Assembly (NCBI GenBank): GCA_040954595.2
Contig: CM082577.2
Coordinates: forward strand, 12,371,654-12,435,653
From: Balanoglossus misakiensis
Lineage: Eukaryota > Animalia > Hemichordata
Length of the DNA: 64,000 nt
Direction: 5' to 3'
The translations under genes and the position numbers were made by a program. Shown in pieces: positions 421 through 63,199 of the stretch (position 1 is the first letter of the stretch; each line of letters starts with the position of its first letter). The notes beneath the pieces are model-generated. The model had not been told where the DNA came from, did no database searches, and saw nothing but the letters and a program-made list of their open reading frames with translations.

Positions 421-519
421 GATGGAGAGACACCTTTGCACCTTGCAGCAGAGTATGGTGATGAAGGCCGTGTCAGATTGTTATTGGAACACAAAGCTGA
501 TGCTAACATACAAAACAAG
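421..519 (+). CDS. ANK exon 1 (array type X)
   Basis: ttacag|DGETPLHLAAEYGDEGRVRLLLEHKADANIQNK|gtaaat, 99 nt. Confidence 0.93.
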
Positions 520-3500
520 GTAAATACCAACCTGACTTCTACAGGTTAATTCTAATCAACATACAAACATTTGTTGGTGTGTTTTTGTTTATTTAAGGAA
601 ACCTCGCATTACATTTCATTTTTGTGACATTGTTCTCATGCTCCTCCTTCATTACTTACAGGATGGAGACACACCCTTCCATATTGCAGCAAGGTCTGGC
701 AATAAAGGCTGTGTCAGATTGTTATTGGAACACAAAGCTGATGCTAACATACAAAACAAGGTAAATACCAACCTGACTTCTACAGGTTAATTCTAATCAA
801 CATACAAACATTTGTTGGTGTGTTTTTGTTTATTTAAGGAAACCTCGCATTACATTTCATTTTTGTGACATTGTTCTCATGCTCCTCCTTCATTACTTAC
901 AGGATGGAGACACACCCTTCCATATTGCAGCAAGGTCTGGCAATAAAGGCTGTGTCAGATTGTTATTGGAATACAAAGCTGATACTAACATACAAAACAA
1001 GGTAAATACCAACCTGACTTCTACAGGTTAATGATATAAATGTGGAAAGATTTATGTATTTACATGTATTTGTTTGTTTAAAAAAACCTCGCAGTTCAAT
1101 TGTCATTTTGTGACATTGTTCTCATGCTCCTCCTTCATTGCGTACAGGATGGAGAGACACCTTTGCACCTTGCAGCAGAGTATGGTGATGAAGGCCGTGT
1201 CAGATTGTTATTGGAACACAAAGCTGATGCTAACATACAAAACAAGGTAAATACCAACCTGACTTCTACAGGTTAATTCTAATCAACATACAAACATTTG
1301 TTGGTGTGTTTTTGTTTATTTAAGGAAACCTCGCATTACATTTCATTTTTGTGACATTGTTCTCATGCTCCTCCTTCATTACTTACAGGATGGAGACACA
1401 CCTTTACACAAGGTAGCAAGGTCTGGCAGTAAAGGCTGTGTCAGATTGTTATTGGAACACAAAGCTGATACTGACATACAAAACAAAGTAAATACCAACC
1501 TGACTTCTACAGGTTAATGCTATCAATGTGGAAAGATTAATTCATATATAAAAATTTTATCTCCAGAAAAGCAATATTACCAGTACATAATTCTTTGTAA
1601 TGAGGGAGAGATCCCTACTGAGATTTGTACACACAGCATGCATGATTACATAACCGGCTAACTTTAAAAGAGACCAGCTGTTCTATTTTTTGTATGTACA
1701 GTACACATGCCATTGGCAGCTTATGGGTCAGTCAGTGTTTGCCCGTTGATCTCTCCATGTGTGTGTGTGTGTGTGTGTGCATGTGTATGTCTGTCTGTAT
1801 ATGTACTACTGTGTAGACTTTTTCTTGTGTAATCCCTAAATGGGACCACAGTGTCCTTGACACGATTTTTGTGACATTGGAGAAAAAAATCTCCTTCTCC
1901 TCCTTCATTACTTAGGGTGGAGACACACCCTTCCATATTGCAGCAAGGTCTGGCAATAAAGGCTGTGTCATATTGTTATTGGAACACAAAGCTGATACTA
2001 ACATACAAAACAAGGTAAATACCAACCTGACTTCTACAGGTTAATGATATCAATGTGGAAAGATTTATTTATTTACATGTATTTGTTTGTTTAAAGAAAC
2101 CTCGCAGTTCATGTAATTTTGTGACATTGTTCTCATGCTCCTCCTTCATTACGTACAGGATGGAGAGACACCTTTGCACCTTGCAGCAGAGTATGGTGAT
2201 GAAGGCCGTGTCAGATTGTTATTGGAACACAAAGCTGATGCTAACATTCAAAACAAGGTAAATACCAACCTGACTTCTACAGGTTAATTCTAATCAACAT
2301 ACAAACGTTTGTGATTTTTTAAGGAGGCCTCACAGTAGATTTCAATTTTATGGCATTGTTCTCATGCTCCTCCTTCATTACTTACAGGGTGGAGACACAC
2401 CTTTACACAAGGTAGCAAGGTCTGGCAGTAAAGGCTGTGTCAGATTGTTATTGGAACACAAAGCTGATACTAACATACAAAACAAGGTAAATACCAACCT
2501 GACTTCTACAGGTTAATGCTATCAATGTGAAAAGATTTATTCATTTATTTGTTTGTTTGTTTTATTGTTTGTTTATTTAAGGAGCTCACAGTACACTTCA
2601 ACTTTTTAGGGGCCCAAGTCTACCGGGCTTGGGCACCTATATGAATTGTTAGAATTTTTAGAGGCCCAAACCCCCTTTTCTTCTTTATTCGTCTGACCTG
2701 TTTTTTTGGCCACGTAGACACGTAGATCCCGACGCATTGCCCTCCGCTACACGCCGGGCAATACCGGGCGCTAATGTCCTTGAGCACACTTTGCGGTATT
2801 TTTGTAATAACCTCATAACATTTAACAGAAATGTTCAATATTTATCAGCAAAAATAGCTCATACATATATCCAATGTCATAAATATTTTAAATTGACAAA
2901 TATTAATTATATTAAATTGACAGACTGGTATGACTGTACTGCATGAAGCTGCAGCCAATAATTTTCCTAAAGCAGTGAATATCCTGATAGAAGCTGGGGC
3001 AGATAAAGACAAAACAGATCAGGTATATTTCATCTCATCTTTCTCAGTATAGGGCTTTTAGTATGTATCGAGTATAGTATGTGTTGACTATTAGAAAAAA
3101 TAGTGCATTAGTTGATATATGATCATTTTCCCACATACTCATTAATTGCAAGGTTGGTGACACAGCTCTGCACTATGCTGTAAAGAATGGACATCACCAG
3201 GTTGTCAAAGTGTTAATAAACAAAGATGTCAACCTAAACTTAGACAATGAGGTAAGTGTTGATCATATTTCTCTATTACCTCCCAATTGGTTTTTCTTTT
3301 TATTCATACTCCAATTTGTTATGCCGTTGGTAATGGAATATGGTTACATTTTGGAAAGCAGATAAATTTAACAGCAATTCATTTAAAAACTGGTGGCAGT
3401 TGAAATTTTCAATCCAATATTTCTTTACTTCTAGGATGGTGAGACTGCACTCTATTCTGCTCTTAAACTTCGGGACATTGAGTCTGCCAAACATTTGCTT

Positions 3501-9500: not shown

Positions 9501-12500
9501 TACCCATGTCCACAGAATTCATGACTGGTGCTGTTACAAGAGGAGGTACAAGGCATATGTATATATAATTAGTTGTTTTAAAACTGGGTCAAAGGTCATG
9601 TGAAAATTGCCCCGAAAAATTGTGACTCATATCCACGAAAAGAATTTCCGTGCTGTCAACATTTTGGCTACAAAACGGAATTTTCATTTTTCAATGGTTT
9701 TCAGAAAATCCAATATGGCCGCCATAATGATCGACCAATCACAGTGCGCTTCGCAAACTTGATAGACATAGGTTAGGTGACCACATACCCCGAATCCCGT
9801 GACTCAGTAATCGCTGGTTCTGGAGAAGAAGATTTGTAAAATTTTAAGTAGTTTTTCAGAAAAAAAATTTGCAGCAAAGAAAATGTATGTTTGACGTCAT
9901 AATTTCAGTAGGGTAAAATGACGGACCGAAGGTAGGCTACCTGCACACCAAACTTCAGTGTTTTTGCTAAGGTCGGGGAACATAGGTAAATGGCCGGGGA
10001 ACTCAGGTAACATGTTGACCATGTACACCCCCCCCCCCCACTGCCGGCTTAAAAGCAAAGACTGAATGACTACATCCATTATAATATACATGTGTATTTT
10101 CCACATCATAATGCATATTAAGTTAACACACTCGAATATTGAAATGACAACCGACATAACTACCATGGTCCGGTAGCCCTATCTTTTGATTCATGAAAAT
10201 GGATTAAAGTTAATTTTCTTCCATCAAGTTCAATGATCAACTGTTTTTTGTGGTAAAAATGCCATTTTCCAGGGTGTTTTACGCAACAAAATTGTGCAAC
10301 TTTACTATTACTGTTACATTCATATGCACTCTAGTTTAACAAATCATTTAAAGACATTTGACTGTGATAGTACAAATTTCAATGACCTCCCCATGAAGAC
10401 CTAGTAAATCAATTTTCACCCAGAGATCTCCTGGGTTCCTAAATCATTTAGCATATTTGGCTAAAATTTAAGTGACCCCCCCCCCCCCCCCTGGATTTTG
10501 CCGCCACCCCTCGGCCGTAAAAACTGAACAGTCCCTAAAGCAATGATTTCTGTCCTGATAAAATCGACAAATTACTGATGGAAATTACTGTTATGCTGCT
10601 GAAAAAAACCCACAAAAAAACGCCTGCCTTTTTTGCTTCTTTTTGATATCACTAATTGCCCTTGAACATCGATCTCAGGGTGTCTGCCGCGGCCGTGTGT
10701 ACAAGTATTCTGCAGACGCGCGGACACATGGCATGACCTCTAACAAAAGTTGCTACATCTTTTGTCAAGTTTTAGATATTTTGTTGCGACCGGAATGCTG
10801 AGCTGCGTTAGTTGTTGCAATTTGTGCGTTACTACGTCAATGATACTATTTATAGAACGCCTATCTAAAGATAACTGGTGCGCTGAGTGAAATGGGCAAC
10901 GCGTACTGTTTCACGATCCGGTGAAATGCGAAATCGACAACGCGTGATACGTGATTTATTCTACTTTGCGTGTTCCGTGGGGAACTCCGGTAAAATGACC
11001 GGGGAACTCCGGTAACATTTACCGGGGTACCGGCCTTAACAAAAACACTGAAACTTGAAGTCGATTGGCCCTGTAGGTTTTGAGAAAGAGTCATTTAACG
11101 GTTTTCAGAAAATCCAATATGGCCGCCAGGTCACTTGACTTATTAAATATTCACGGGCCACAGTACGTCTACACATTGGCCCCTACCACCCTGCCAAGTT
11201 TCAGCCCCGTATACGTAGGTGCTGCGGTTACCCAGATCTACCTGGTCGAATTTTGGGGAATAATAATAATAATAAAGAAAAATTCCAACAATACCAATAG
11301 GGGCACAAGCCTGATAGGCTTGTGCCCCTAATAATAAGAGTGATTTCTTATACCGGGGTATAGTGCACGAATCCTCAATCATGTTCAAAATGCTATACAG
11401 TTATTACCTAATTTAATGCCATTCAACTCCCTTGGGAGCAAACAACAGGTCACATGTGTAGCCATAATGTCAGATACAATTGATACATAACAGATACATT
11501 TGCAATGTCTGTCCTACCACAGTACCAGGTACCCATTACTCCTGGGTAGGGAGAAGTAATAAGAAGTATTGGTGCCTGTAGTCTGTGGGCTGGAGGGGCC
11601 CACCGTGCACCCCCCCCCCCCCCATAAACCTACCACTTGGGTATTTTTATGTTCTTTAGAACGTGCTGAAAAAGAAAAAAGATGTTATTAGGCCAGGAAG
11701 AAAAAATAAATTGTTAATCGAATCAATATTCTACTTCCGTGTTACAAAATTCTTAGTACTGCCGCTGGTGGCCAAAATGTGCAAACACCAACTGTAAAGT
11801 TAATTGCCTATGTTATTGTTGGGAAATATAGTATTGAATTCAGTTACAAGTACATGTATCAGTGTTTTTGTCTGAGATATTTCTGGTAAAAAGGGAAACA
11901 ATTATCTCGCCCAGTCTGCATCTGTACAAATATGCCAGAGAACCGCATTTACCTTCAGCCTAAAAAAATAAATAAATAAAAATATTCGCTCGCCGCTCCT
12001 GGAACTTGGTCCAAAAAATCCGATGAACAAGATTTTTTAGGTCCCATTGGTATGTACCATGGGACCTTATGGGATCGGTTGCGTCTGTATGTATGTATGT
12101 ATGTATGTATGTATGTATGTATGTATGGATGTATGTCTGAATGTCTGTCCACATCAAAAACTTGAAAACCACTGCGCGTATGACCTTGATATTTGGTGTG
12201 TAGATGAAGGCAGGGCTATAGATGGGAGTTTGTTCAAATGAAGTTGTCATTGCCAAAAAAATGCAAATTAGCTGGGAAAATGTGAAATAGGTCAAAACTC
12301 AAAAACTCAACAACCACTGGTCATATTGATTTGAAAATTGGTATGCATGTACCTTATGTCAACCTCATACAGTCCTGTATTTTTTGAGCTAATATTATTG
12401 ATTTCCTATTTTTTATGCATTTTTTTGTATTTAGGGGCACAAGCCTATCGGGCTTGTGCCCCTATTAGTCCATGGGCCAGAGACCGAAACCCTCCCCCCC

Positions 12501-15500
12501 CCCCCCCCCCTGGGGAGTATTGCAGACATATATTTTTGGAAAGCCTATTTATCCAGCTGTCAGAATCAGGTTGTTTGCACTCATATTAATGGTGGGTGTG
12601 GCCGTGAGGAGCGGTTGTCATGGTAATGATAGCATAATTTTAGGGGTACTCATACAGTTAAAAAATGATATATTTCAGGATCTGAGAAAGCTAGAGAAAA
12701 AATTTAAACATTGGGTCTTATAAAGTAGGTTACGGGCTATCCAATGATTACATGACCAACAAGGTCAGAGGTCAAGTTCATCTTCAAAACGCGGGGTCAA
12801 AGTAAAAATTGCGCTATTTTTTGCATATCGATCATACATAGTTTCGATTTACTAGAAAAAGGTTTGCTCGAGGAGGCTGTAAATTGGTCATCAGGTAGCA
12901 TGGAACATTAGGTTTAAGAAAAATAAGCTGTTTCATGTCTTTGAAATTAAGTTATATTAAAATTCTGTTACCATAACGACGGATAGCAGATTTTGCGAAA
13001 ATCACAAAAATAAGAATCCTGCTATATCTTTGCTACCAATTAAGCTTTAGATAAAATTTAAACACTCAAACTTATAATGTCGGGTGCGAGCTTTTCATTG
13101 CTAACTTGAACTTTGGGGTTCAAGGTCAAGGTCATCCTCAAATTTCAGGTCAAAGTGACAAAATGGACATTATGGACTTTTGTTCAAAATGACATTTTAC
13201 GGCGAGCGTTTACTAAACACTGTTTGGATCTAGAATGCTATGATTTGATCTCCAGATAGAGATGTGTATTGTTTACAAAGATTTTAATTTATTTTGCTGT
13301 TTACATATACTTAATATGCAAAACCTGCTGTTTTAATGACAACAAAATGAATGGTAGGAATAGCAAGAGTACTCATACAGTTAAAATGAGATATTTCAGG
13401 TTCTGAGAAAGCTAGAGAAAAAATTTAAACATTCAGTATTATAAAGTAGGGTACGGGCTATCCAATGATTACATGACCGACAAGGTCAGAGGTCAAGTTC
13501 ATCTTCAAAACTTGGGGTCAAAGTGAAAATTTCGCTATTTTTTGCATATCTATCATGCATAGTTTTGATTTACTGGAAAACGGTTTGCTCGAGGAGGCTG
13601 TAAACTGGTCATCAGGTAGCAAGTTATATTAGCTTTAAGAAAAATAGGCCTATTTTCGTCTTTGGTTGTAATTTATATTAAAATTCTGTAACCATAACGA
13701 CGGGTAGAAGATTTTGCGAAATTCCCCAAAATAAGAAACTTGCTATATCTTTGCTACCAATTAAGCTTTACATAAAATTTAAAAACTCAAACATATAATG
13801 TCGGGTGCGAGCTTTTGATGGCTAAATTGAACTTTGGGGTTCAAGGTCAAGGTCATCCCCAAATTTCGGGTCAAAGTGACAAAATGGGCATTATGGACTT
13901 TGTTCAAAATGACATTTTACGGCGAGTTTACTACACTGTTTGGATCTAGAATGCTATAATTTTGTATATTTTGATATTTTAAATTTAAAGTTCAGGGTCA
14001 CCTTCAAAAGATGGGGTCAAAATTCAATATCCCAACTCTAATTAGTGTTGCAGATCTCCCCAGAAAAAAACGAACCCTCTGACTTGGCCATACAACATTT
14101 TGTGTCATACACCATTTTAAAGTTAAGTTCTGAGAGTTTGAAAATGCTTGACGACATTTTCAATTCCCATGGCGAGCTGATGAATTCAAGATTTAGTAAA
14201 ATTGGTATATTTCTTGAAATATGCGAACGTGCATTTGCAATTGCTATAAAGGGACATACATTATCAGCATGTTTTTACTGTAAAAATACTATATTCAACT
14301 TATATTGTGGCCATTCTATGGTATTTCAGTTTAAATATGTACAAAGTTTTATCATATTTAGCACATTCTTATCAAGATGATTTCTGTTGATATGACAAGT
14401 TGACGTAAGGAGTCATCTTGCCCCTCTAATCAGACGCTGCAATTGTGTGTAGAACTAAGAACAATCCTCGTATCTGCTTCTTCACTGTATCTTTTGCGAC
14501 AACAAAAGTGGTGAAGTTTGGTCCTCCACTTACAATTAATTTCTGACCAATGTTGAGATCTACTTTTTTCATTATGTGTAGCATTTTGCAAAATTTGCTT
14601 TGTTTTCTTGATTAATGGTAAGCAAGAATGCCGTCCATTTTGTCGGAGCACTTAGGTCAAGTATGATATGATGTGCTGGTGCAACACTCACATCACGTGT
14701 TTGACCTTTGATCCTTTGATCCCTTTCGCATCATAATTATCAATGATCATGTGTATTTGCGAATTATCAACAGGACCTAAAATTCAGCCTCTGTTTTACA
14801 TTATGTATTCCATAAATCCTATTGCTATATTGATAAAAGTGATTCTGTCTACAAGATTAGGACCAGGCAGAGACTGAATGGTCATCATAAACTATGGCAT
14901 CGGCAGCCTCAATGCTAGTCTATCTGTCTGCTGGAAATGAATTTTAAGTCCATCATCTGAAAACAAACAGAGAGGAACGTTGGAATTTTCAATGACTCCG
15001 ATGAGTGGCATCTTCTAACTTGTATTAACAGCAGGTAATCAAAGATAAACCGTCTTCTTCATTTTTGTCATGTTTTTACATTGCTGCAAGTCATACTATG
15101 GTAGAAGCACTTACACGGTTTGTCAGGTTCTTCTTATATAATTAGTTGCTCAGAAAAAAAACCCAGCCATTTCTTTTGATATAGTAATGTTGATAGTTGC
15201 TTAAATGAAGGTCGGAAAGATCAAATGGGTCGACAAATGCTCCACCTTGTAATTCTTAAAGCTTTGCCACATCAGTATTCCATCTCTTAATGACTGCTTT
15301 TCCATATCGGATCTTATTTTGTTTACCAATACTGCATATTTATTTGTGAAATGTATCAGAGAACTTTGCAGTAATCGGTCCACCCAAAACCACTTTTCAA
15401 GTGCTAAACCTCTCATCGTTTCGATTGGCACAAAACAACAGAGGTAATAATAGCTGATTCTTAGCAGTTTGGCAAATATCTCAATCACCATTTCTTAATG

Positions 15501-18500
15501 CACTTACATTTCTACCGGTGGGTAGAGTTTTAATGGCAGCAATACTCTACACAAAGTCATACCAAAAGTTAAAAGTTACTCCTCTCTTGTCTAAACTCAG
15601 CCATAAGCGGGAAATGATGTTCAATGATGTGTTCCACAAAATTGTGAACTATTTCCAAAAGTTCATTAGCAGGCTGGGAAGTCAAAAGATCACAATCCAT
15701 CTCAGGCATTGACTGTGTTCCCTACCTTTACACCATGATAAAAAGTTGCAGACCCTAGCGCTGGACGTTTCATCAGCAAGACGGAGGCCATGCAATGACA
15801 AATAACCGGAAAACATTTTCACATGAGCAAACGTTTTTTTTTTAAAAACGTAGCATTCATTTTGTATGATTATGAATGATTGTGATTTAAAAATATTGCT
15901 TTTGAGTATATAATGTGTCTTAAGTGCTTTACGCACAATTTCCTAAAAATCTCTGTGCCTAAAACACATATTCGATCGGGTTGTCTGGACTATTGCCGCA
16001 GTGGCATCATGGGATAACACATAAATCAGCATGACTCGCACTCCCGCGGTCGCGTTTTTTTATATAATAATATCCAGAAGTAAAAGTGGCATCTTATTTA
16101 AATATTAATATCAAAATATACAAAATTATAGCATTCTAGATCCCAACAGTGTAGTAAACGCTCGCCGTAAAATGTCATTTTGAACAAAGTCCATAATGCC
16201 CATTTTGTCACTTTGACCCGAAATTTGAGGATGACCTTAACCTTGACCCCAAAGTTCAATTTAGCAATCAAAAGCTCGCATCCGACAATATAAGTTTGAG
16301 TGTTTCAATTTTATCTAAAGTTTAATTGGTAGCAAAGATATAGCAAGTTTCTTATTTTGGGGAATTTCGCAAAATCTTCTATCCGTCGTTATGGTTACAG
16401 AATTTTAATATAAATTACAACCAAAGACGAAAATAGGCCTATTTTTCTTAAAGCTAATATTCCTTGCTACCTGATGACCAATTTACAGCCTCCTCGAGCA
16501 AACCGTTTTCCAGTAAATCAAAACTATGTATGATCGATATGCAAAAAATAGCGAAATTTTCACTTTGACCCCAAGTTTTGAAGATGAACTTGACCTCTGA
16601 CCTTGTTGGTCGTGTAATAATTGGATAGCCCGTACCCTACTTTATAATACTGAATGTTTAATTTTTTTCGCTAGCTTTCTCAGAACCTGAAATATCTCAT
16701 TTTAACTGTATGAGTACTCTTGCTATTCCTACCATTCATTTTGTTGTCATTATAACAGCTGGTTTTGCATATTAAGTATATGTAAACAGCAAAACAAATT
16801 AAAATCTTTGTAAACAATACACATCTCTATCTGGAGATCAAATCATAGCATTCTAGACCCAAACAGTGTTTAGTAAACGCTCCCCGTAAAATGTCATTTT
16901 GAACAAAAATCCATAATGTCCATTGTGTCACTTTGACCTGAAATTTGAGGATGACCTTGACCTTGAACCCCAAAGTTCAAGTTAGCAATGAAAAGCTCGC
17001 ACCCGACATTATAAGTTTGAGTGTTTAAATTTTATCTAAAGCTTAATTGGTAGCAAAGATATGGCAGGATTCTTATTTTTGTGATTTTCGCAAAATCTGC
17101 TATCCGTCGTTATGGTAACAGAATTTTAATAACTTAATATCAAAGACGTGAAACAGCTTATTTTTCTTAAACCTAATGTTCCATGCTACCTGATGACCAA
17201 TTTACAGCCTCCTCGAGCAAACCGTTTTCCAGCAAATCGAAACTATGTATGATCGATATGCAAAAAATAGCGCAATTTTTACTTTGACCCCGCGTTTTGA
17301 AGATGAACTTGACCTCTGACCTTGTCGGTCATGTAATCATTGGATAGCCCGTACCCTACTTTATAAGACCCAATGTTTAAATTTTTTCTCTAGCTTTCTC
17401 AGATCCTGAAATATATCATTTTTTAACTGTATGAGTACCCCTAAAATTATGCTATCGTTACCATGACAACCGCTCCTCACGGCCACACCCACCATTAATA
17501 TGAGTGCAAACAACCTGATTCTGACACGGGCGTCATGGAACAATAAAGTGTATGGATAATTTAGCATAGGCCTAAACGAACACACAATAAATTATTTCGT
17601 GTTTTTTTTTATGTGAACGAGAACTACACTCACGAACGGCTACAGCTGGACTTGCAAAATATGCGAGCGAACGCACTAGCGCCGCGGAACGCGGAAGTGA
17701 TGTTGCAATCTACAACCGCACGCGCCCGACCCGGCGCGCGCGCAGACGATCGTACGACTCCGTTGCTAGCCAGGACAGGCGCGTTCGTATACAGTGTATA
17801 TATGTGTACTCACGTAAGTACACAGGGCAGATCAGTTTCGGGCGCGCACGCATGCGTAGACATCGCCTTTACTGCTCAAGACGATATCGTACACACGGTG
17901 CCTATCCCCTATAGACGCGTACGCCGTACGGTGTGGTTTTGCAAATAAAGTTAACACTGACCTAGCTTTAGTGCATTTCTCGTCCACACCAAACAAACCT
18001 ATGAAATATTTTATTCTTTGTTCATTGGGGACGTCGCGTTTATGTTAATTTTATTAATATCTATACACTTTATTGTTCCATGACGCCCGTGATTCTGACA
18101 GCTGGATAAATATAGGCTTTCCAAAAATATATGTCTGCAAAATTCCCCGGGGGGGGGGGGGGGGGGAGGGTTTCGGTCTCTGGCCCATGGACTATATTGG
18201 CATTGTTGGAATTTTTCGTCTTTATTATTCCGTCTTCTTCTTCCGACATTTTCGGCCAGGTGGATCTGGAAAACCGCAGCACCTACGGGGCTGAAACTTG
18301 GCAGGGTGATAGGGGCCAATGAGTAGACGTGCAGTGGCTCGTGAATATTTAATTAGTCACGTGACCTGGCGGCCATATTGGATTTCCTGAAAATCGTTAA
18401 ATGAGTCCTTCTCCAAAACTACAGGGCCAATCGATTTCAAATTTGGTGTGCAGGTAGCCTACCTTCTGTCCATCATTTTACCCCATTGAAATCATGACGT

Positions 18501-27500: not shown

Positions 27501-30500
27501 TGATTTCGGTGGGAAATTAAAATACTTCAAAAGGTTCTATAACAAAGAAAAATGTGTTAATTTTATAATTTACTATACAAACATTTATTATCACCTTATA
27601 TTATGATTATTATGATGTTTTTTTAGGACGGACTCACAGCACTTCATCATTTTTCGAAGAATGGTGATGTTAGGGCTGTCAATATCCTTCTGACCAATCA
27701 AGCAAATGTCAATGAATTTTCAAAGGTAAAAAAGACCAAATTCTTTACTTCTTAATGAGATACTTTGAGCAGTGCACTACCATAAGTACAAAAACATAAA
27801 TACCAGGTTGTTACTGTCGCTGTTGAGTATATTGTACAGGGTTGAGTGGGTCCTTCAGCATTTTTTTTGGACCAGGCTCTGCCATCCAAGTTGAAAACAT
27901 CAACATAAATGCTAATAGTCCGTGGGCTGGAGGGGTCCACCGTGCCCCCCCCCCCCCCCATAAACCTACTACTGGGGTATTTTTTTGTTCTTTAGAACGT
28001 GCTGAACAAGAAAAAAGATGTTAACATTGAATATTTTGGGTGGCACTACCCCTCCGGGTTGGTTTTTGAATGGTATGTGCCGCTCAAAATGGCGAAAAAT
28101 GGGTTGGGGTAGGGGGTACTATTCTCTCTCCTAAAAAAATAAAACTAGCATGAAATTACATAAACCTTATATTTTTAGAAAGCTTAGATACTCCTCTTTA
28201 CGGGAAGCACAAACTTTATTAAAAATTATTTATGAATATTTAATTGGATGATTTTTAAATTATTTTTTTCGGCAATTTCGAAAGTTTTCACTCAAACGAC
28301 AATGTTACAATTGTGATTTTCTTTTTGTGAAGCAAATTTTTGACAACTTTTTAGGTTTGGATTATTTAATTCTATATATTAAACAATAAAACAAATGTTA
28401 ACATTAGTTATTTAACAATACAATACTTCTTTAGAGACAACTTTGAAATGCATGTATCCTATGGGATTACGCATGGTCTTGGGGTAGGGGGTACTATATC
28501 CTCTCCTAAAAAAATAAAACTAGCATGAAATTGCACAAACCTTATATTTTTAGAAAGCTTAGACACTGCTTTTTACGGGAAGCACAAATTTAAGTATAAA
28601 AAATTTATGAATATTTAATTATAAGATTTTTAAATTAATTTTTTCGGCAATTTTGAAAATATTCACCCCAAAGACAACGCAACAATTGTGATTTTCTTTT
28701 TGTGAAGCAAATTTTTGACATCTTTGGGGGGTTTGGATTATTGACTTCTATTTATTAAACAAGAAAACAAATGTTAACATTAGTTATATAACAATACTAA
28801 CAATACTTCTTTAGAGACAACTTTGAAATGCATGTATCCTATGGGATTACGCATGGTCATGGTGTAGGGGGTACTATATCCTCTCCTATACAACAATAAA
28901 ACTAGCTTCAAAGTACATAAACCTTATATCTTTAGAAAGCTTAGACACTGCTCTTTACGGGAAGTGCAAACTGGAGTAAAATTAATTTTTGATTATTAAA
29001 TTATATGATTTTTAAATTATTTTCTTCGGCAATTTTGAAAATATTCACCCCAAAGACAACGCAACTATTGTGATTTTTCTTTTTGTGAAGCAAATTTTTG
29101 ACAACTTTTTAGGTTTGGATTATTTTTTTTTATTGTCATAAACTAAACAAAATATCTCTACATCTCAAAAGAAAACAAAATGTTCAAGTACAGAAATTTT
29201 TGAAAATATTCCAGTACCTGTAGTGTGTGTGATTCTCTATTGCCTTTGCTTGGTAAGTATCAATTTTTTGTATATTATTGAGGTAAGATAAAAATCTGCG
29301 AAGGTTTGGCAATACTCGCTTAAATTTATATTTAAAGATAAAATTCTTTGAAAGTAATATAAAGTAATTCAGGGCTAACCACTCATCTTTTGTGTGGTTA
29401 CTTTGAAAATTCTATTTTATACCCACCAAAACATCAAAAGGGTACAGCTCAATGGCAATATTACACTTTGTCTGTAATTGCAACTCTACATCCTTCCAAA
29501 AAGACAAAATACAGACGCATTCGAAAAATAAATATATAAGGATTTCCTCATAATTTTCACAGAAGGTGCATTTCACAGAATCGCATTTTCCCTGTTATCT
29601 TTAAAAATGTATTTGTAGTACAGATTCTACTAGCAATTCTGAATTGAAAATTACGCAAAGTGGAATCCTTTGTTACAATAAATGGTAAGGCATAGTGTAA
29701 TTGCGAATCAAATCCCGAAGAGGTTTTTCCATTTTTGCGTACATCTCATCGGTTTAAGATTATTCTTCAAAAATAACTTATTATAAGTAAAATAGAGTAG
29801 GTTTTTTGCAGGATCTATTTGTGTGATACATGTTTGGGTGGTCATTATTTACAGAGCCTTGTTGCTGAATCTTTCTGAACCGTGATCTTGGAATAGCGTT
29901 GTTTAAACCCATATGAAGGAGACAGTTTGGTGAAAAATTATGTCAGTTACTAAAATCTTGAATGATAAAATGGAACCGGAAAAATCTAATAAATCCGAAA
30001 TATACATTACAACATTATCATATCAGCTTTTATAAAATATGGTAGCGTTGTTAACTTTCAGCTCTGGATTGAACCATATACACCTTTTTTATGTTATTAA
30101 GGATGTACGTTCAGTAAAATTGAAAGTATTGTCATTTTTTTTAATTGTGGATTTTTGGATTCTCCTTTGTATGTATAATGAAAATCCGTAATAAAATATA
30201 TGGGTCACCGCGCTTGTTTTTGAAATACAGAGCCATGAATTTAGTCGATAATAGAAGAAAACTGCTGACTCAGCATTTTTCACCAATGGTTTGTCTATGG
30301 GCAAAATTTTTGACGCAATTTATCTCAAAATAGAGCGCGGTGACCCCTATATTTTATTTGACCAATGAATTTATATTTGCTGGACTGAGCTATGTGTAAA
30401 ATTTCGTGAAAATGACAATAGTAGAAGTTTGTTTTCTAGCAATTTTCAATGTAATCCTATGGGAAAAAGACCGGGCGCGCACTGCTTCCGGTTTATGTTC

Positions 30501-33500
30501 TGCGCGTACATCCTTAATGGGGGGGGGGGGGGGGGGGGGGGTAAAGTTTTTGACCAACATAGTAGTACTGAGTACCAGAAGCTATGACGTGAAAATCTGT
30601 TTCTGGCAAACTCCACGACCTGAGCCGGGGTGAAGTGGGTAAGATAGCAGGGGATATACCCACAGTATAAACATTTCTATCCACTGAGAATATTGATTGG
30701 ACATTAATCTGTTAATCCACGAAGCACGCACTGTTTGAACGAATGAGGGAAGATGGGTCATTCGCAAACCCCACTCATCACAATTACAACATAATCTTAA
30801 TCTATTGACTTTATCAGGTTTTGAATTCCGATAAAAATCTAATAAGTGTACAGATTTGATTATCTGACATGGGAGGTAAGGATGAGAAAATATGAATAAA
30901 CTTTGACAAAGCAAGTGTTTTAGCTATTGTAATCTTGCCACATAAGTCACAGGTCGCCATGACCATTTAGTAAGCAGTGTGGACACTTCCCTTACTTTTG
31001 GTGTAAAATTTAACATATCGAGCCGAACAAGATCAACGTTCAGGTTAATACCAAGAACTGTTAACGGTTCATCAACCCATAATAAGTTCTTGTTTGGCAA
31101 CAAAATATCATGTGAATGGCATGTAGCACCAAACCAAACCAATTTAGTTTTTTGGTAGTTAATTCGCAAACCCGACAGAAAAGTAAAGAAACCCAAGGTA
31201 GCAAACAGATTTTTCAGAGAACTTTCAGAACCATCTAAATATACAAAAATATCATCTGCGTATTGCCCCAGTAAATTTTTTTTATCTCTAAGTGTAATCC
31301 CTTCTATATTACTATGAGCTCTGATTTAATGCCCAAGTTTTTCAACACAGGTGATAAACAGGTACGGTGATAGAGGATCACCTTGTCTAACACCTCTCTC
31401 GAGGGGAAAAAATCAGAAAAGTTTCCGTTATTTATAACACAACTAGTGGTGTTTTTATAAAACACTTTGACCCATTTTCTGAAAGAGGGATCAAAATTAA
31501 ACTTTCTCAATGCTTTATCGATAAATTCCCAAGAAAGCGTGTCAAACGCCATTTCAAAGTCTAGAAATACAAGCAAACCCGGGACCTTGTCTATCTTTGA
31601 AGTTAACAATACATCATAAATCAAACGTGTATTTTCACCAATATACCTTCCTTTCCTCAAAAAAACCTTTCTAGTCAGGGTGAATAACTTTTGGCAAGAA
31701 CCGTTTCATACGGTTTGCTATAACACCAGATGCAATCTTATAATCCGTGTTTAGCAATGTAATACGGCGCCAATTTTTCATGTGAAATCTGTTCTTGTTG
31801 GGTTTCGGAATACAAGTAACAATTCCCCGCTTTTGAGAAATAGACATTTTGCCTGAGGAGTAGGCAGAATTAATTGCACGGGCTATATAAACACCAATGT
31901 CGGGCCAAAAAAATTCCGGCAGAAAAACCGTCTGTTCCTGGTGACTTATTATTTGCTATTGACTTCAACACTACTCCACATTCATGCTTAGACAGGGCCC
32001 CTTCCAAAGAATCCCGTTCCTCAGTACTCAAAGTAGGCAAAGTATTTCCATGCTGCATAAAATTATCTAACTGATCAATATTGCAAGCAACGTTTTCTGT
32101 TTCTCGGCCCTAGTAAATTCCTAGTTGCATACGAAATCGTATCTCCACGAATTTTTATTTTCAACATATCCAAGAAAAGTTGATCCGAAATGGTAAAAGT
32201 GGGACCAGCTTGAGAGCTTCCCTCCTGTCTGTACTCATCCTTAGTATCCCGAATTGTATTTTTAACAATGTCCACATAATCGTTGTCATCCAAGAGAGAC
32301 GTATTGCAGAGTGGTCACTCCGGTAACCGACACTAATATTTGCAGTTGCGGTCATATTAGTGAATTCAGGCGTAATAAGAAAATAATGCAGCCTAATCTG
32401 AACAATATTAGGATTGCGCCAACACTACGTAAATGTACGCGAGGACTCGTTTATCATCCGCCAAATATCTATCAAATTATACTCATCACAGAGACGATCA
32501 ATTTGTTGCCTTGCATCCGAGTGAGAGTCTGTAGTGCGGCCAGCTGTGTCAGCGTCAAATCCCTCATTACATTCCAGTCCCAAACTGCAATAACTGAATT
32601 ATTACCAAACATATTGATCTGCACTTTCAAATCAATATAGAATATAGTACCCCCTACCCCAAGACCATGCGTAATCCCATAGGATACACACATTTCAAAG
32701 TTGTCTCTAAAGAAGTGTTTTATTGTTAAATAACTAATGTTAACATTTGCTTTCTTGTTTAGTATATATAGAAGTCAATAATCCAAACCCCAAAAAGCTG
32801 TCAAAAATTTGCTTCACAAAAACAAAATCACAATCATTGCGTTGTCTTTGGGGTGAATATTTTCAAAATTGTCGAAGAAAATAATTTAAAAATCATATAA
32901 TTAAATAATCAAAAATTAATTTTACTCCAGTTTTCACTTACCGTAAAGAGCAGTGTCTAAGCTTTCTAAAGATATAAGGTTTATGTACTTTGAAGCTAGT
33001 TTTATTGTTGTAGGAGAGGATATAGTACCCCCTACCCCAAGACCATGCGTAATCCCATAGGATACATGCATTTCAAAGTTGTCTCTAAAGAAGTATTGTA
33101 TTGTTATATAACTAATGTTAACATTTGTTTTCTTGTTTAATAAATAGAAGTCAATAATCCAAACCCCCAAAAGATGTCAAAAATTTGCTTCACAAAAAGA
33201 AAATTGTTGCGTTGTCTTTGGGGTGAATATTTTCAAAATTGCCGAAAAAATTAATTTAAAAATCTTATAATTAAATATTCATAATTTTTTTATACTTCAG
33301 TTTGTGCTTCCCGTAAAGAGCAGAGTCTAAGCTTTCTAAAAATATAAGGTTTGTGCAATTTCATGCTAGTTTTATTTTTTTAGGAGAGGATATAGTACCC
33401 CCTACCCCAAGACCATGCGTAATCCCATAGGATACATGCATTTCAAAGTTGTCGCTAAAGAAGTATTGTATTGTTAAATAACTAATGTTAACATTTGTTT

Positions 33501-36500
33501 TATTGTTTAATATATAGAATTAAATAATCCAAACCTAAAAAGTTGTCAAAAATTTGCTTCACAAAAAGAAATTCACAATTGTAACTTTGTCTTTTGAGTG
33601 AAAACTTTCAAAATTGCCGAAAAAAATAATTTAAAAATCATCTAATTAAATATTCATAAATAATTTTTAATAAAGTTTGTGCTTCCCGTAAAGAGGAGTA
33701 TCTAAGCTTTCTAAAAATATAAGGTTTATGTAATTTCATGGTAGTTTTATTTTTTTAGGAGAGAATATAGTACCCCCTACCCCAACCCATTTTTCGCCAT
33801 TTTGTATTCGGGTATAATTTGTGAACAGCATGATCCAGGATGGATCACCTTTTTCTGAGCATGTCTAAAGAAAAAACCCTAAACATGGGGTTTAATTTTC
33901 AGTTGAAATTCCCTAAAGATGGAACAAGAGCATCAGAAATGGTCCCAGTTAATTCTTAAAGAAACTATTAATATGGCAACAGAAAAAATGGTGATATGAC
34001 CAGAAAAAGCGACCAGGCGCTTTTTCTGGTCATATCACCATTTTTTCTGTTGCATATTAAGAGTTTCTTTAAGAATTAATGGGACATTTCTGATGCTCTT
34101 GTTCCATCTTTAGGGAATTTTCAACTGAAAATTAAACCCATGTTTAGGGATTTTTTCTTTGAAAAAGTGATCCATCCTGATCATGCTGTATCACAAATTA
34201 TACCCGAATCTAGCATATAACTGCCCGTGAAGGGGTTATTGCCTAAATTTAATAATTAGTAAATTAATACTTTGATTTTACTTATAAATCATTTTACTTG
34301 AACCTGGTCATTTTGAGAGTATATTGCCGGCTGAGAACAGGTTTTAGGGTCTGCGCATCTTTTCTGCGCATAACAAACTGTCGTTCAATGGCTTCCTTCA
34401 CGATCAGTCAACTCCCGCATATATGGCTTCAAAGCGACACACAGGATTAACAGCTGTTCAACTGGACGATATTTTACCGCAAACGGACAGTAAATACACC
34501 AAAGTCGCAACCAACATGGCGGTTTTATCTGAGTTCGAAGTAGGTACACTGTACAGTGAGATATTTTAGTTCACTGCAACCAGCATCGTACGAAATGGAC
34601 GCAACCCTCTATGCTGTGTATGGTCAAATGTTCGGTATAATAAAATTAATAACACATGTCATGTTCGGGCAATATCATGATCTTTGGCCTGCCCTCGGGC
34701 TGGTGATCTCTGACCATAATATTGATGATGCCCTCGCCTGCGGCTCGGGCATCATCATTATTATGGTCAGAGATCACCATCCCTCGTGCAGGCCAAAGAT
34801 CATGATATTGCCCTCGCTAACATGTGTTATTATTTAAATATTGATTCAATTATCCCAACCTTGGATGACATGCGGAATACTCACAGCTGGGAGGCAAAGT
34901 TGTAGCTCAATGTGGGTAGCTCAATAACTAAATACGAACCCAGTGGCCTGTATTTGGATTTTGGACATGAACACACATCAAGCAAACTGTCAGATCAGAT
35001 AAGCTGACAGCCATTCACAATGCAGAGACTCTGCCACAAGTGACGTTTTACACTCACTTTTTGGGTGTGCCCATTTTCCATAAAATACTATTTTTTTATG
35101 TTTAATATCTCGTACCAAAATTTTAGATAAACAAAAAGTGCATCAGTTTTTGTCTTGATCCTCAAATAAGGCCTCTCCTAATATCAATTATCACCATAAT
35201 TTATCAGCTGAGCATCTGCGCAACTGACAAGATCCGGTGAGGAATATTTAAATTTGCGTGTGGCGTAGACTCAGATAGAGTATCCGTCAGACGCATGAGC
35301 TACTGGTTAAAAGTATCCACACTAGTCTCTGTGTGGAGAATAGCTGACAGCATGAGTAAGTGCATGGTTCAGAAGGGTATCTATAATCAGTAGTGCTACT
35401 GATATTTTGATATTTTCAGAGTGGGTTTACTGCCCTGCATTATGCAGCAGCAGAGAGCCATATTGATGTAGCCAGGATCTTAGTAGAGAATAACACACAG
35501 CAGCTACATCAAGAAAACGTGGTAAGGTCTTACTCTCATTTATCCAGTGCTATTCATGAGGATAACGACTAAGCTAGGCAATAGATGTAGAATTTGTTGA
35601 ATAAAACAAGATCAGTCCAACTACTGTGAGTGTACCGGTATACACCGTTCCAATGTAGGTAGATTACCTGCTTCATTGGATGTCTGAATTGTAGTGGTTA
35701 AGTCTTGCATTGCTAGATGTTGAATGTGTATATATTGAGGAAGAATTCCGTTGTCTATAAGTCTTGGTTGCAAGTCAACGTTTGTGGTAACGTGTATTTC
35801 AGTAGTACTAATTTTTGAAATGCAATTGTGTTTTTGACAACAAGGCGAATTGTGTAGTAAACCTGATTAGGTTCTGTCTATGTATTAAAGTCTGTATTTC
35901 TAAAAAAACACAGCAACAACAGATATCCATGTTACACTGGGCTGTTGAAAACTTTGAAGATATTGTGGCAGAGACTCTCATCAAGGCAGGACTGGATATA
36001 AATGAACTTGCTCAGGGACTGAATAAGGTACGTGTTAAGTTTAATGTTGATATAAAAAATGGTAATAAATTATAATTACATTGTATAATGTCTTATTTCC
36101 AAAATTCCAAAACCTGCAATTTTGCAGGTTTTTACGTCCTTCTCCTAAACCAATTGTCCAGCTGTTTTGAAAGTTATTGTTTACAAGGAGTTGTTACCCA
36201 CAACTTAAACATGTTTACATAACTTTAATAGGCCATAGGCCAGCTGTTACAGAGACCACCAGCTATTAAATTTCTAATTACCAGTGGCAGGTCAGTGAGT
36301 GTCTTTGTCTGTCTGTCTGTGTGTGTGTGTGTCTGTTCCAGGGCTGACTGAAAGTAGTTGCTTGTCATATGTGTGTGTACAGACAATTTTGGTCAAAAAT
36401 AAATTTTTCTAGCACCACTTGTAAGACTGCCTTGACACATGGCAGTTCATTGGGCATGTTCCTTGTTAATTTTTTTACATTCCATATATCCATGATTAGA

Positions 36501-42500: not shown

Positions 42501-45500
42501 GTTAATTTCGGTAATACACATCATTGCACTGGACCCTGCAAGGCATGCATTTGGGGACTAAGTAAGTTGTCACACCACGGTTCAAGTTGTAACGCAACGG
42601 AGGATACGGAATGTGCATTGCTTTATAAAAGTCGTGTCACGGTCAGGAGATAAGCTTAGAATCGGCAGGCGTACACGTGTAGAACGGGTAGAAGAACTAT
42701 GACATTACGCTTTGACTTTCGGAATTTTGCACTTCGTTTCATCTGATTTTCGGGGAAGGAAAGACGAATCATTTAATGGACTATGTGAAATGTGCTTTGG
42801 TTTTCAAAAATCGGCAATAATTTGAGAATATTAAAGTCCCCGCGTGTCAATAGCCGGCCCCCTATGCACTGGCTATTGACACGCGCGTGTCAATAGCCGG
42901 CCCGACAAGCACTGGCTATTGACACGCGCGTGTCAATAGACACTCCGTAAAAACTTATGTTGAGAAGGAGAGTTGTACATTGATTAACGTTTTCAACGGT
43001 GTAGTACCGGTGTAGCAACGATCCAGATACGACTTCGACGGAGAATGCTTTTCGCCTGTGCTGCGCCGGTGTTAATTTTTGACAGCGATGACGGGTGGTT
43101 CAGATCCAGACCGAAGCAAATATACAGTGAGAACGCAAAGCACAACCCTGTCGTGACTTTTGATTATGTTTATCTAGGTAACCTATTGTCTTGGATCAGT
43201 TTCCATTGTTGAGTCAATCACACTGGACGCGAGTGGTTTTCTAGCCACTCGCGGTTAGTCGGGTCTGCAACACTTCTGTCTGCCACCAACTTTAGGTTCT
43301 TTCGATCGCCGAAAAGACGAGGCGTTTTCGATTTGTGGATTAACATCCAGTACTTCTAAACGATATCAAAACGGTCATGAAGAAGACGACAAAGTCGCCT
43401 AGAACGCATATCCAGGTATAGAAACTGAGATATGTTGCAATTACATGTCCTCGACGTCCTCAATTTTTGTTAGTTGCCGTGTTCCTAAACATTGCCATTT
43501 AGACGGCGTTGATCTCAAAACAATGTCCGTTTAGTGTGTGGACGCACACAGATTCTGAGGGCTAATCCCCTGTTAGCAAGAAACAGGAAGTGCTACGATA
43601 TTCGTCATTTTTAAGTTGCTGCAATTGATCTGTAGTTTGTACGTGTATGCTTTACATGTATGCATCTGTGGAAACATAAAACACAGGTTACAAATGAACA
43701 TAAATGACTACATGTACATAGTGTTTTGACCCACTAGCATTCTTTATCTGAATTGGAGGTTGCGCAACTAGACTAGAAAAACCAGAAATGCCATGGGATC
43801 AATCATAGACCCTATGGATCAATCAAACGTGTTTGGGGTTCAAACCGACCGGCTTCCTTAGTGGTAAGCAACCGGTGCGCCAGTAGACTAGCCCACTAGT
43901 TGCTTGGTGATTTTTAAATCTAAATAGTTAAGGTGTTTTCGATGGTTTTTTGTCTTAATAAATAATTTCAATACGTTTTGCGTGCATGCTTGCCTTGAGC
44001 ATGTTTTTGGTAGTGAGGTGAGTTTCGAATTTGGGACTGAGCTTGTGGTTTTGGGTAGCGTGGGTCTACGCGTTCCCTACGCATAATGAAGCCCATAGAC
44101 TTGGAGCAAGTATAGTGCGCCAGGTAAACAAGCGCGCTTCCTGTGACCTGGCTGGCCATGCAAGCCAGGTAGCTCATGAATATTCAGGATGCAAGCCTGG
44201 CGCGCTCAGCAAGCACGCTCACCGGGCCTGGCGAGCAGGGCGAGCCACCTGGCTTGCTGCGTTCAGGAGCAGGCGCGCCAGGTAGAACAGGACATTCAGT
44301 CTGTAGTGTAGGCATATAGACCATGGGACCTTATGGGATCGGTTGCGTCTGTATGTATGGATGTATGTCTGTATGTCCGTCCACATCAAAAACTTGAAAA
44401 CAGCTGTGTGTATCACCTTGATATTTAGTGTGCTGATGCAGGCTGGGCTGTAGATGGGAGTTTGTTCAAATGAAGTTGCCATTGCCAAAAATATGCAAAG
44501 TAGCTGGAAAAATGTGAATTTAGGCAAAAATCAGTAACTCAAGAACTACTGGTCAGATTGCTTTGCAAAGTGGTGTGTATTTACTTTATTGAGTTGTTTT
44601 AATTAGGCAGGAACTCCCCTCTGTGATTCATATAAACACAGCAAATTCCTGAATGATTACATATTAACTGGCTAAGTTTTAAAGAGGCCAGCTGTTCTAT
44701 TTAGTGTATGTACAGTACATATGCCATTGGCAGCTTATGGGTCAGTCAGTGTTGGCCCATTGATCTCTCGCTATGTGTGTGTGTCTGCCTATCTGTATAT
44801 GGCCATGTACTCCGGTGTAGACTTTTTCTTGTGTAATCAATCAATGGGACCACCGTGTCCTTGACGCGATTTTTTAAAATGTAGCCAAATTATCGCCCTG
44901 GGCGACTAATTGGTTCCAAGTGTGCACCTGTCAATTTCCTCATTTTCCAATTAATAGCCCTGGGCGAACTATCAGTAAAACCCGGTATGAGTCAAAAGAA
45001 TTGAAAAGAAACTAATCAACCTTAACTATTGTGGTTTTATTACTCAAACAACTTTTGAATGACTTCACTGTCTTTAAGGGAGCTGCAATTATTTATGACC
45101 TGGGGGTTGGAGGAATCATAGGGGTCACTCAAAAATGGACGGTTGGAAGGTGGGGTTCTCAAAAAATGGAGACGAAGAGGGGGACACTCAATTTTTGGAA
45201 AAGTATCAATTGAACGTATTTCAACTGAAAGATTTATTTGTGTGCTCGTCTTAACATACAAGATATGGATGTATGGTGTAAATTTCCAAATTAGAGTTCA
45301 TTTTGATTTATATGATCCTTTTTTTTACCAACGGAATTTTGGAGTCTTTACAAGACATGCAGTGAAGTGACCTGCTAAAAATGTATTTTCCAGTATGCCG
45401 CATTTTGATTGGTCAATTTATAATTAGTTTGGGTGTGGTCCATGACCCGCATTGGCTGATGTTTTGATATAGTGCGCCAGGTAAACAAGCGCGCTTCCTG

Positions 45501-48500
45501 TGACCTGGCTGGCCATGCAAGCCAGGTAGCTCATGAATATTCAGGATGCAAGCCTGGCGCGCTCAGCAAGCACGCTCACCGGGCCTGGCGAGCAGGGCGA
45601 GCCACCTGGCTTGCTGCGTTCAGGAGCAGGCGCGCCAGGTAGAACAGGACATTCAGTCTGTAGTGTAGGCATATAGACCATGGGACCTTATGGGATCGGT
45701 TGCGTCTGTATGTATGGATGTATGTCTGTATGTCCGTCCACATCAAAAACTTGAAAACAGCTGCGTGTATCACCTTGATATTTAGTGTGCTGATGCAGGC
45801 TGGGCTGTAGATGGGAGTTTGTTCAAATGAAGTTTCCATTGCCAAAAATATGCAAAGTAGCTGGAAAAATGTGAATTTAGGCAAAAATCAGTAACTCAAG
45901 AACTACTGGTCAGATTGCTTTGCAAAGTGGTGTGTATTTACTTTATTGAGTTGTTTTAATTAGGCAGGAACTCCCCTCTGTGATTCATATAAACACAGCA
46001 AATTCCTGAATGATTACATATTAACTGGCTAAGTTTTAAAGAGGCCAGCTGTTCTATTTAGTGTATGTACAGTACATATGCCATTGGCAGCTTATGGGTC
46101 AGTCAGTGTTGGCCCATTGATCTCTCGCTATGTGTGTGTGTCTGCCTATCTGTATATGGCCATGTACTCCGGTGTAGACTTTTTCTTGTGTAATCAATCA
46201 ATGGGACCACCGTGTCCTTGACGCGATTTTTTAAAATGTAGCCAAATTATCGCCCTGGGCGACTAATTGGTTCCAAGTGTGCACCTGTCAATTTCCTCAT
46301 TTTCCAATTAATAGCCCTGGGCGAACTATCAGTAAAACCCGGTATGAGTCAAAAGAATTGCAAAAGAAACTAATCAACCTTAACTATTGTGGTTTTATTA
46401 CTCAAACAACTTTTGAATGACTTCACTGTCTTTAAGGGAGCTGCAATTATTTATGACCTGGGGGTTGGAGGAATCATAGGGGTCACTCAAAAATGGAAGG
46501 TTGGAAGGTGGGGTTCTCAAAAAATGGAGACGAAGAGGGGGACACTCAATTTTTGGAAAAGTATCAATTGAACGTATTTCAACTGAAAGATTTATTTGTG
46601 TGCTGGTCTTAACATACAAGATATGGATGTATGGTGTAAATTTCCAAATTAGAGTTCATTTTGATTTATATGATCCTTTTTTTTACCAACGGAATTTTGG
46701 AGTCTTTACAAGACATGCAGTGAAGTGACCTGCTAAAAATGTATTTTCCAGTATGCCGCATTTTGATTGGTCAATTTATAATTAGTTTGGGTGTGGTCCA
46801 TGACCCGCATTGGCTGATGTTTTGATATGTTTTGATGGTCACTAAAACTTTCTGTGTTAGAAAATTGGGGGGGGGGGGGGTTTACTGCAAATTTTGGAGT
46901 TTCAAGTGACATTCTTCCCCCCCCCCAGGCCGTACATAATGACAGCTTCCTAAGTGATTTTTTTCCCCTTTCTAACAGAATGAATCTCGCATATCGCAAT
47001 CGTTCACGTATTCACACAGACCTATATTCATAGCAGCTGCCATGTATGAAGATTTAAGCTTTGTGAAAGTACTCCAAGATGTTGGTATTGATTTAAATAC
47101 AGCTGATGATGTAAGTAAATTTTAATTTTTCATGTTTTGGGAGAACATTAAATACAAAATAGTTTTGTTCTATAATGAAGCAATAATTTAATTAACGTTC
47201 TATCCTTTGAAAACTTATCTTAGCCTTTTGCCAGGTTCAAAATTGTGACAAATGGAGAATGCTGGCAGGAAACATTAAACACTGATAGAATTGTAAAGCA
47301 TTGAAGATTCTTGTCAGTGCCTCCTATGAATAACAAGTACATTATAATAAGATGATAATTAATTCCGAGAAAGAAGCATTTAATCTTCATGACCTTCAGT
47401 GTCTGTTTTGGTAAAATTTAACACAAAACCTTGCCTGATTTTTGTATACTTTTGGTTGACCCTGTATTACATGTTATTAGGAACTGTAACAGTTAAACAG
47501 GCCAGGTGCTTGTGACATATCATATTTAACCTTGTGCATCAGTTTTGTAATAGTGTGTGAGTTCAACATATAATAACTGCATCACGTACAGGTATAGCAT
47601 TAAATGGATCACAATCTTCAACTGCAGTCTCATTCACTTCTAGAATGATCTGACCGTTCTGCAAGAAGCAGCAAAGGAGGGATATGATAAAGCTGTCACT
47701 GTTTTAATAAAAGCAGGTGTAGAAGTAAACAAAACAGACCAGGTGTGTGTCTTATCCATGACATTTCTGTTGCAGATTTAATATATGTGGTGTCATATTA
47801 CATGTGATATAGAGGGACTGGTGATGGCGGCCATGTATGTCCAGAAAAGTTCAAAACATGTTGCCTATGTTCTCTGTGGTTAATAATCTGTGTTTTCAGT
47901 GGTGGGTCTACAGCCCTATTTGTATGTAGGCACATTTGTGTCAAAATCTTTTGCTATCTTTTACTGTTTACTGTCTTCCCCTATTTTATGTAAAGTTCAT
48001 GATAATGTGGGTGTCATTAAACAATATAGCAATACTGAGATGCAATGAGACATCAAAAAGTAATACATTTTTGTCAGTGGTTTTCCACACCTGCATAATT
48101 GTAGTCTCCGTGACCCAGCTACTCAGTGTTCAACCTACCACATAGCGCAGCAGCCCCCAGCAGAGGGGCTGGGTCACAGAGACTAGCAAAAGGGCAGTGA
48201 TCATAAATTATGTGACCTCATGTAAACTTCCAGTTTTGGCATGGTATATTACAAACTTGCGCCTGCATATTGTGAGTCAGATGCTACACTTCTATTAAAC
48301 TTGTCAACTTACCCTTTAAACATGGAGATTTAAAGTGCCTATGACATGCCCTATACAACCACGCGTAAAATCACTCTTTGGGTCTTGAAGTTAACGTATG
48401 TTACTATCTGGCATTGCGTATCACCCTCTGTGCTTAGATAACAGGCAAGTAAAAGTGGCGAGTGGGCGTGTACTCCTAACCCAACTCAGTCGATTTTTTT

Positions 48501-61479: not shown

Positions 61480-61718
61480 GTTCTGCCTCACTGCTGTCTC
61501 GCAGGTGTCACTCGAGATTGCGTGATACTACCCATCATTCAGTGCGCTTTCTACTTCAGCGACAGTAACACCGCCTGAAAATCGCTCTGCGATTTCAGCG
61601 GGTAAGATAAACTTTCGTGAGAAAAACCTCACAGAAAGTAACGTTCTAAGGTATTCTAATACCTTTCTACGGTCACAGACCCTGTAATCAGGAACTCTGA
61701 TGACATAAAACTTGCGAT

Positions 61719-63160: not shown

Positions 63161-63199
63161 AACAGCCCGCTCCTGATTTGGAGGTAAGCATTGTGTTGA

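Follow-up and report, generated by a model that had tools for sequence, protein, structure and literature searches.

The window, that is, the whole 64,000-nucleotide stretch of DNA analysed here, carries near its start an array of eight single-repeat ankyrin exons, which we regard with moderate confidence as the variable block of a giant ankyrin gene, reshuffled so that its predicted binding surface changes, and probably belonging to an intracellular sensor of non-self; the immune role is one that we infer by analogy.

All eight array exons lie on the forward strand, are 99 nt long, bounded by AG and GT, in phase 0 and free of stops, and each encodes one ankyrin repeat. They follow the order X Y Y X Z Y X Z, and this order, the number of exons and the peptides given for them in an initial annotation made from the sequence were all recovered. 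Type X, with an acidic helix 1, is represented by exons 1 (421-519), 4 (1148-1246, same sequence as exon 1) and 7 (2159-2257), type Y by exons 3 (903-1001) and 6 (1916-2014, its acceptor region altered beside a repeat insertion), and type Z by exons 5 (1389-1487) and 8 (2388-2486); exon 2 (662-760) is a mosaic that joins a Y 5' half to an X 3' half and precedes a type-a intron. Exons of the same type differ at 0-3 of the 99 nt and exons of different types at 8-18, and the charge over codons 1-17 is -4 in X and 0 to +2 in Y and Z. A Pfam Ank (PF00023) scan of three of the eight exons, one per type, scored 41.2 (X), 43.0 (Y) and 36.6 bits (Z) against a cut-off of 21.1. Exon 1 has no start codon, the 40 nt preceding it are an array acceptor, identical to the end of intron 1 and closing an array-type intron end (292-420), and array-like intron lies farther upstream; the gene therefore starts, and the array probably extends, upstream of the window, so that the count of eight stands inside the window and is probably a lower bound. 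The donors of all array exons and the acceptors of seven of the eight were near-identical and strong, these acceptors scoring 8.5-12.8 on a small home-made matrix. The same matrix gave 0.4 for the acceptor of exon 6 (1890-1915), next to the repeat insertion, which makes this exon at best a weak candidate for skipping.

The separation of the introns into two types, as originally drawn, was borne out with two additions. Type a, 142 nt long, is represented without any difference by introns 1, 2 and 4, and type b by introns 3 and 6 and, with an insertion of ~335 nt, by intron 5; intron 7 is a type a that has diverged. The first 31 nt are identical in all eight introns that follow array exons. The insertion in intron 5 (1538-1872, no strand assigned) is a dispersed repeat with related copies at 1-300, 6455, 21027, 44597 and 45954. 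Of the aligned sites, 39 distinguish the X-a units (1 and 4) from the Y-b units (3 and 6), and at these unit 2 (exon 2 plus intron 2) carries the Y letter at the first 12 and the X letter at the next 27, a clean mosaic with its switch point between exon nt 49 and 82, in agreement with the crossover inside exon 2 that had been proposed.

Two long identical tracts accompany this mosaic. A recent tandem duplication on the forward strand (470-971) makes positions 470-730 identical to 711-971 over 261 nt; its breakpoint falls within the exon's constant half, the arrangement expected from one unequal crossover there. The second tract, also on the forward strand (416-675, identical to 1143-1402 over 260 nt), spans an X exon and the type-a intron after it and reaches nt 14 of the exon that follows, a Y exon in one copy but a Z exon in the other; its end lies in the homogenised zone on the acceptor side. 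The ends of these two tracts thus mark two exchange points that flank the variable codons. Recombination between repeats, one of the criteria for hypervariable arrays, is represented here by the mosaic unit 2 and by both tracts; they show recent exchange in the lineage, which is no sign of ongoing exchange or of differences among individuals.

The distribution of differences between X-a and Y-b units followed the same geometry, with 12-13 of 51 nt in the 5' half of the exon, 2 of 48 in the 3' half, none of 31 at the start of the intron, 24-28 of 75 in its middle and 1-2 of 36 at its end. The flanks of the variable half are homogenised, intron DNA included. Within the unit of ~241 nt one homogenised zone comprises the last ~36 nt of the intron and the first codons, the other comprises exon nt 50-99 and intron nt 1-31, and the variable codons 3-17 sit between them, both recent exchange points falling inside these zones.

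Within the exons, the first 51 nt hold 17 of the 23 variable nucleotides (Fisher p = 0.018) and 17 of the 18 informative ones (p = 4e-5), although clustering by a floating window over all variable sites was not significant (p = 0.11); these counts, together with the 31 identical intron nucleotides, agree with the near-invariance earlier ascribed to the C-terminal half and the intron start. That the differences are mostly non-synonymous, as was also claimed, proved true but equal to the neutral ratio, with 9 non-synonymous and 3 synonymous differences over 39 and 12 sites in codons 1-17 of the pair X1/Y2. The codon-wise comparison that the initial annotation had put forward as a check showed no departure from neutrality, pN/pS in the variable half being ~1, and no non-synonymous excess over neutral expectation was seen in the window for X/Y (10/13, p = 1.0) or X/Z (13/15, p = 0.54), a comparison of three types with low power. 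Positive selection argued from a non-synonymous excess was accordingly rejected. As a control, seven pairs of paralogous exons from the tail of the same gene, described below, gave a pN/pS of 0.40 in the first 17 codons and 0.51 in the rest, with intron flanks alike at just 10-18 of 31 positions; the array differed from this control for X/Z (Fisher p = 0.044) and did not for X/Y (p = 0.24). Divergence reached 24% in the cassette versus 32-37% in the intron middle.

The variable codons were placed on the predicted binding face by alignment to the DARPin sequence in PMC8248824, on which the mapping rests and in which exon codon n corresponds to DARPin position n+2. According to that source, the artificial DARPin libraries randomise positions 2, 3, 5, 13, 14 and 33, and position 10 is a target contact in the D5-HER3 complex. 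Both the DARPin and the window array are built on a 33-residue module with a constant framework and vary at positions 3, 5, 13, 14 and 10; the array, unlike the DARPin, is invariant at 2 and 33 and also varies at 8, 11, 16, 17 and 19 (core or turn) and at 30, and its binding face is a predicted one. The original equation of the variable residues with the DARPin-randomised positions therefore holds for four of the six. Contact positions were enriched among the variable ones (5 of 7 versus 6 of 26 others, one-sided p = 0.027) when position 10, added after seeing the data, was included, and not significantly so with the six DARPin positions alone (4 of 6, p = 0.078), the p-value ranging from 0.027 to 0.19 with the definition used. 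The pattern of variation fits a binding face and is no proof of diversifying selection.

Extending the gene inside the window towards possible effector domains, as had been suggested, yielded 34 more ankyrin exons that the initial annotation lacked, each divergent and encoding a single repeat, on the same strand and reaching 60891. The resulting gene model, obtained by profile search and splice-site inspection, comprises 42 exons and 1,445 aa, all 42 exons having AG/GT ends, phase 0, no stop and one repeat each. The tail consists of a ten-exon block copied about three times, plus five more exons. Block 1 (2924-25776, forward strand, as are all the others) has ten divergent exons at 2924, 3153, 3435, 8637, 9031, 22270, 22506, 24876, 25375 and 25657; block 2 (25926-47110) has ten exons with 62% protein identity to block 1; block 3 (47644-55143) has nine, with 38% identity to blocks 1 and 2; and the last five ankyrin exons (55631-60891) have 32-35% identity to the starts of blocks 1-3. 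The final exon ends in GT, and the gene likely continues past 60891. No effector domain was seen inside the window, outside which both ends of the gene lie: the ANK-Roc proteins P0139 and P0143, two of the five queries of a Roc/NACHT comparison, gave no Roc match among those listed (best E 0.83-0.87), and a splice-site scan of the window revealed no convincing non-ankyrin exon, the 42 modelled exons all being ankyrin-like.

Contigs from three public sequencing runs (X1, X2 and X3; one sample from one study, perhaps the source of the assembly) placed the array unit in a much larger family. A single unit (630-790) was hit by 226 contigs in run X1, 208 in run X2 and 12 in run X3. In run X1 the summed contig depth over the constant half was ~250,000, compared with 23.8 and 19.9 on two long contigs of the unique flank, a ratio of ~11,000-13,000, or of ~340-410 if each base was counted 31 times, that is no copy number. 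One variant contig alone reached 62-74 times the flank depth, and we read the cassette family as having at least hundreds of copies. The first tail exons were found on contigs at 5-13 times flank depth, so several paralogous genes likely share the tail.

Variation in this family fell on the same codons as in the window, the 24 variants listed with frequencies of at least 8% being at codons 1, 4-8, 11-15, 17, 20 (one row) and 28-29. Codons 8 and 12 each showed several letters, whereas helix 2 was almost invariant. At codons 13-15 the X form is the norm and the letters of Y and Z are rare, for which reason X/Y/Z was rejected as a family-wide code and is treated as a local trio. The cassette also varies in length: gaps of 3 nt against the window unit occur in some family contigs, and one additional codon in helix 1 was read by hand in two contigs with spliced exons. 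These contig data extend the initial annotation, in that the unit recurs in many copies, which carry numerous further variants of helix 1.

Contigs of run X3 covered only 660-762 and contained exon-to-exon joints (762 to 664, that is, back by 99 nt, and 760 to 687) that were not found in runs X1 and X2. This exon-limited cover and the joints, the two features on which the assignment depends, point to an RNA origin of X3, provisionally labelled DNA, and to tandem splicing of family exons. The spliced contigs carry helix-1 variants other than X, Y and Z and come from family paralogues. In one X3 contig (705-761) a family exon was followed by ~130 nt absent from the window; another family gene thus leaves its array into a different exon.

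In the mechanism that we propose, the array would be drawn from the high-copy cassette family and reshuffled in the germline by unequal crossing-over and gene conversion. Each unit would act as a frame-neutral cassette, any gain, loss or swap keeping the frame because every exon is in phase 0 and one repeat long. As the identical tracts suggest, whole repeats would be gained or lost when units pair out of register in the constant exon half, and the half that encodes helix 1 would be exchanged by conversion within the stretch that the two homogenised zones bound. The exons would then be spliced in a row into a stacked ankyrin domain. Ankyrin repeats are described as stacking with their hairpin and inner-helix residues lining one groove, and a lone repeat as unable to fold (PMC8229355); in the array the equivalent residues would form one groove with a charge pattern that varies with repeat order, and the 34-repeat tail would serve as a conserved scaffold or stalk. 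A bolder extension, which we offer as a tentative possibility, is that hundreds to thousands of exchangeable ankyrin exon cassettes constitute a natural DARPin library, with homology arms flanking the binding helix, from which conversion between loci or exon skipping would deal new surfaces to intracellular immune sensors, the present gene being a giant, long-stalked member.

Repeat arrays of fungal NLRs and brown-algal ROCO genes offer the closest parallels, and the analogy with both, drawn at the outset, is supported by PMC4986451 and PMC3341825 as far as these sources describe the two systems. The ANK arrays of fungal NLRs are reported to evolve in concert, to be polymorphic for repeat number and to be under positive selection on the concave face (2014, PMC4986451), an array of that type being defined by internal conservation over 85% over 100 aa. 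Like them, the window array has near-identical repeats that evolve in concert, and its variable sites are on the inner helices and hairpin. For the fungal proteins, polymorphism in repeat number, positive selection and a NACHT domain have been demonstrated; the window array is known from the sequence of one sample and, unlike them, has one repeat per exon, homogenised intron flanks and a divergent tail of 34 repeats. The LRR-ROCO genes of brown algae, described as having one LRR per exon, exon shuffling and candidate status as immune receptors (Zambounis et al. 2012, PMC3341825; Teng et al. 2024, PMC11378527), share these traits with the array, the one-repeat exons all being in one phase (42 of 42 here), and likewise have variable residues on the concave face. 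They differ in that their repeats are LRRs of 72 nt in phase 2 rather than ankyrin repeats of 99 nt in phase 0, and neither a ROC-COR domain nor reversed intronic cassettes were found within the window. By analogy, the array would work like these two repeat systems; membership in either family is set by an NTPase domain, which was not found in the window.

Expanded ankyrin-bearing immune adaptors have been reported from marine invertebrates (PMC8195603), the sections of that paper considered here describing no single-repeat exon design, and the literature covered, to which most subscription journals do not belong, yielded no account of a family of single-exon ankyrin cassettes in animals. Orthologue searches against proteins covered entries of up to 2,000 aa and are weak evidence of absence: no orthologue was found with the Y exon (three of six candidates examined, all generic), with tail exon C (30 matches, of which 10 were looked up and four were named, from unrelated animals), with the tail profile among 120 of 931 matches listed (generic ankyrin proteins sharing at most ~35% identity with the tail and its blocks) or with the distinctive tail exons (0 of 450 candidates). 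A DNA pattern search of metagenome contigs returned four loci, three of them chance matches and one an intronless ankyrin gene, all four without blastn similarity to the window. This last gene, an ankyrin-repeat gene at 393-2924 of contig L003, has ~33% protein identity to the array and is otherwise without DNA similarity. If the family is a sensor repertoire, it would be an animal, ankyrin-based counterpart of the fungal and brown-algal repeat-shuffling receptors, and would offer a testable explanation of how invertebrates, without RAG, can diversify what they recognise inside the cell. This locus contributes a pair of features: its exchange points can be located to either side of the variable helix, and the old tail of the gene provides an internal control.

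The main rival to the sensor reading is neutral concerted evolution, in which an easily duplicated phase-0 ankyrin unit has spread in the manner of a minisatellite through scaffold genes, helix 1 drifting under relaxed constraint and no recognition being involved. We consider this unlikely, though the pN/pS of ~1 in the variable half, an intron middle as diverged as the cassette, a gene already built from nested exon duplications of several ages and the lack of an effector in the window are all in its favour. Drift would not be expected, however, to leave eight of eight exons with open frames and an intact TPxH..A..G framework, nor to place variation at the same codons throughout the family beside an almost invariant helix 2, and the tail exon pairs, with their lower pN/pS, contrast with the array. 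Concerted evolution of metazoan repeats is, moreover, reported to be rare and enriched in host-parasite functions (PMC5100051).

Diversity could also be generated within the animal, by combinatorial skipping of in-frame exons (Dscam-like) or by somatic rearrangement from the cassette pool (VLR-like). In VLR-type receptors an incomplete germline gene is completed from flanking cassettes in the soma. Neither a recombinase nor an incomplete germline gene was seen in the window, the cassettes having intact splice sites and one frame, and no isoform of the window gene was seen among the contigs, the X3 joints being between neighbouring family exons and unable to show skipping. Uniform phase and length of the array exons, a large cassette pool and the alternative splicing of one-repeat exons in brown-algal ROCO genes (PMC11378527) speak for such a generator, but the near-identical, strong splice sites (all but the one acceptor) and the duplicate exons 1 and 4, which add no splicing diversity, speak against it, and we hold it to be quite improbable. 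Still less credible is a silent or decaying copy, at most a donor of cassettes: its X, Y and Z exons are spliced in no contig, repeats have inserted in intron 5 and before exon 1, and the tail introns hold many mobile elements, but all 42 modelled exons keep AG/GT ends and phase 0 without a stop, and the tail pairs are under purifying selection. An assembly artefact, with 241-nt units mis-expanded or paralogues joined as chimeras, would account for perfect 260-nt tracts in a high-copy family and for an array spanned by no listed contig; most units, however, have private differences and unique introns, the window contains no N, and the Y-specific letter at 679 has a depth of 66 in run X1, ~3 times the unique flank (20-24), as three Y exons predict (a rough measure, perhaps from the same sample), so that we give this explanation the least credence of all. 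The variable block of a sensor gene thus remains our preferred reading.

Several mobile elements and duplications were recorded in and beyond the tail. Past the last ankyrin exon lies a retroelement (61600-64000), the layout of which we take to be reminiscent of DIRS elements. Its reverse transcriptase (63248-63763, PF00078) stands behind a 201-aa ORF without a Pfam match. A broken reverse-transcriptase element on the minus strand (30924-31702) is located at 28085-33804 between two inverted arrays of a tandem repeat of ~375 nt. Long inverted repeats at 12558-17526 (886 nt, 97%) and at 57586-59320 (507 nt, 98%, around a weak HTH_32 match below the cut-off) are likely intronic DNA transposons. 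Two nearly perfect copies in direct orientation, spaced by 1,357 nt, lie at 44111-46661, also in an intron, and represent either a recent event or a duplication of the assembly.
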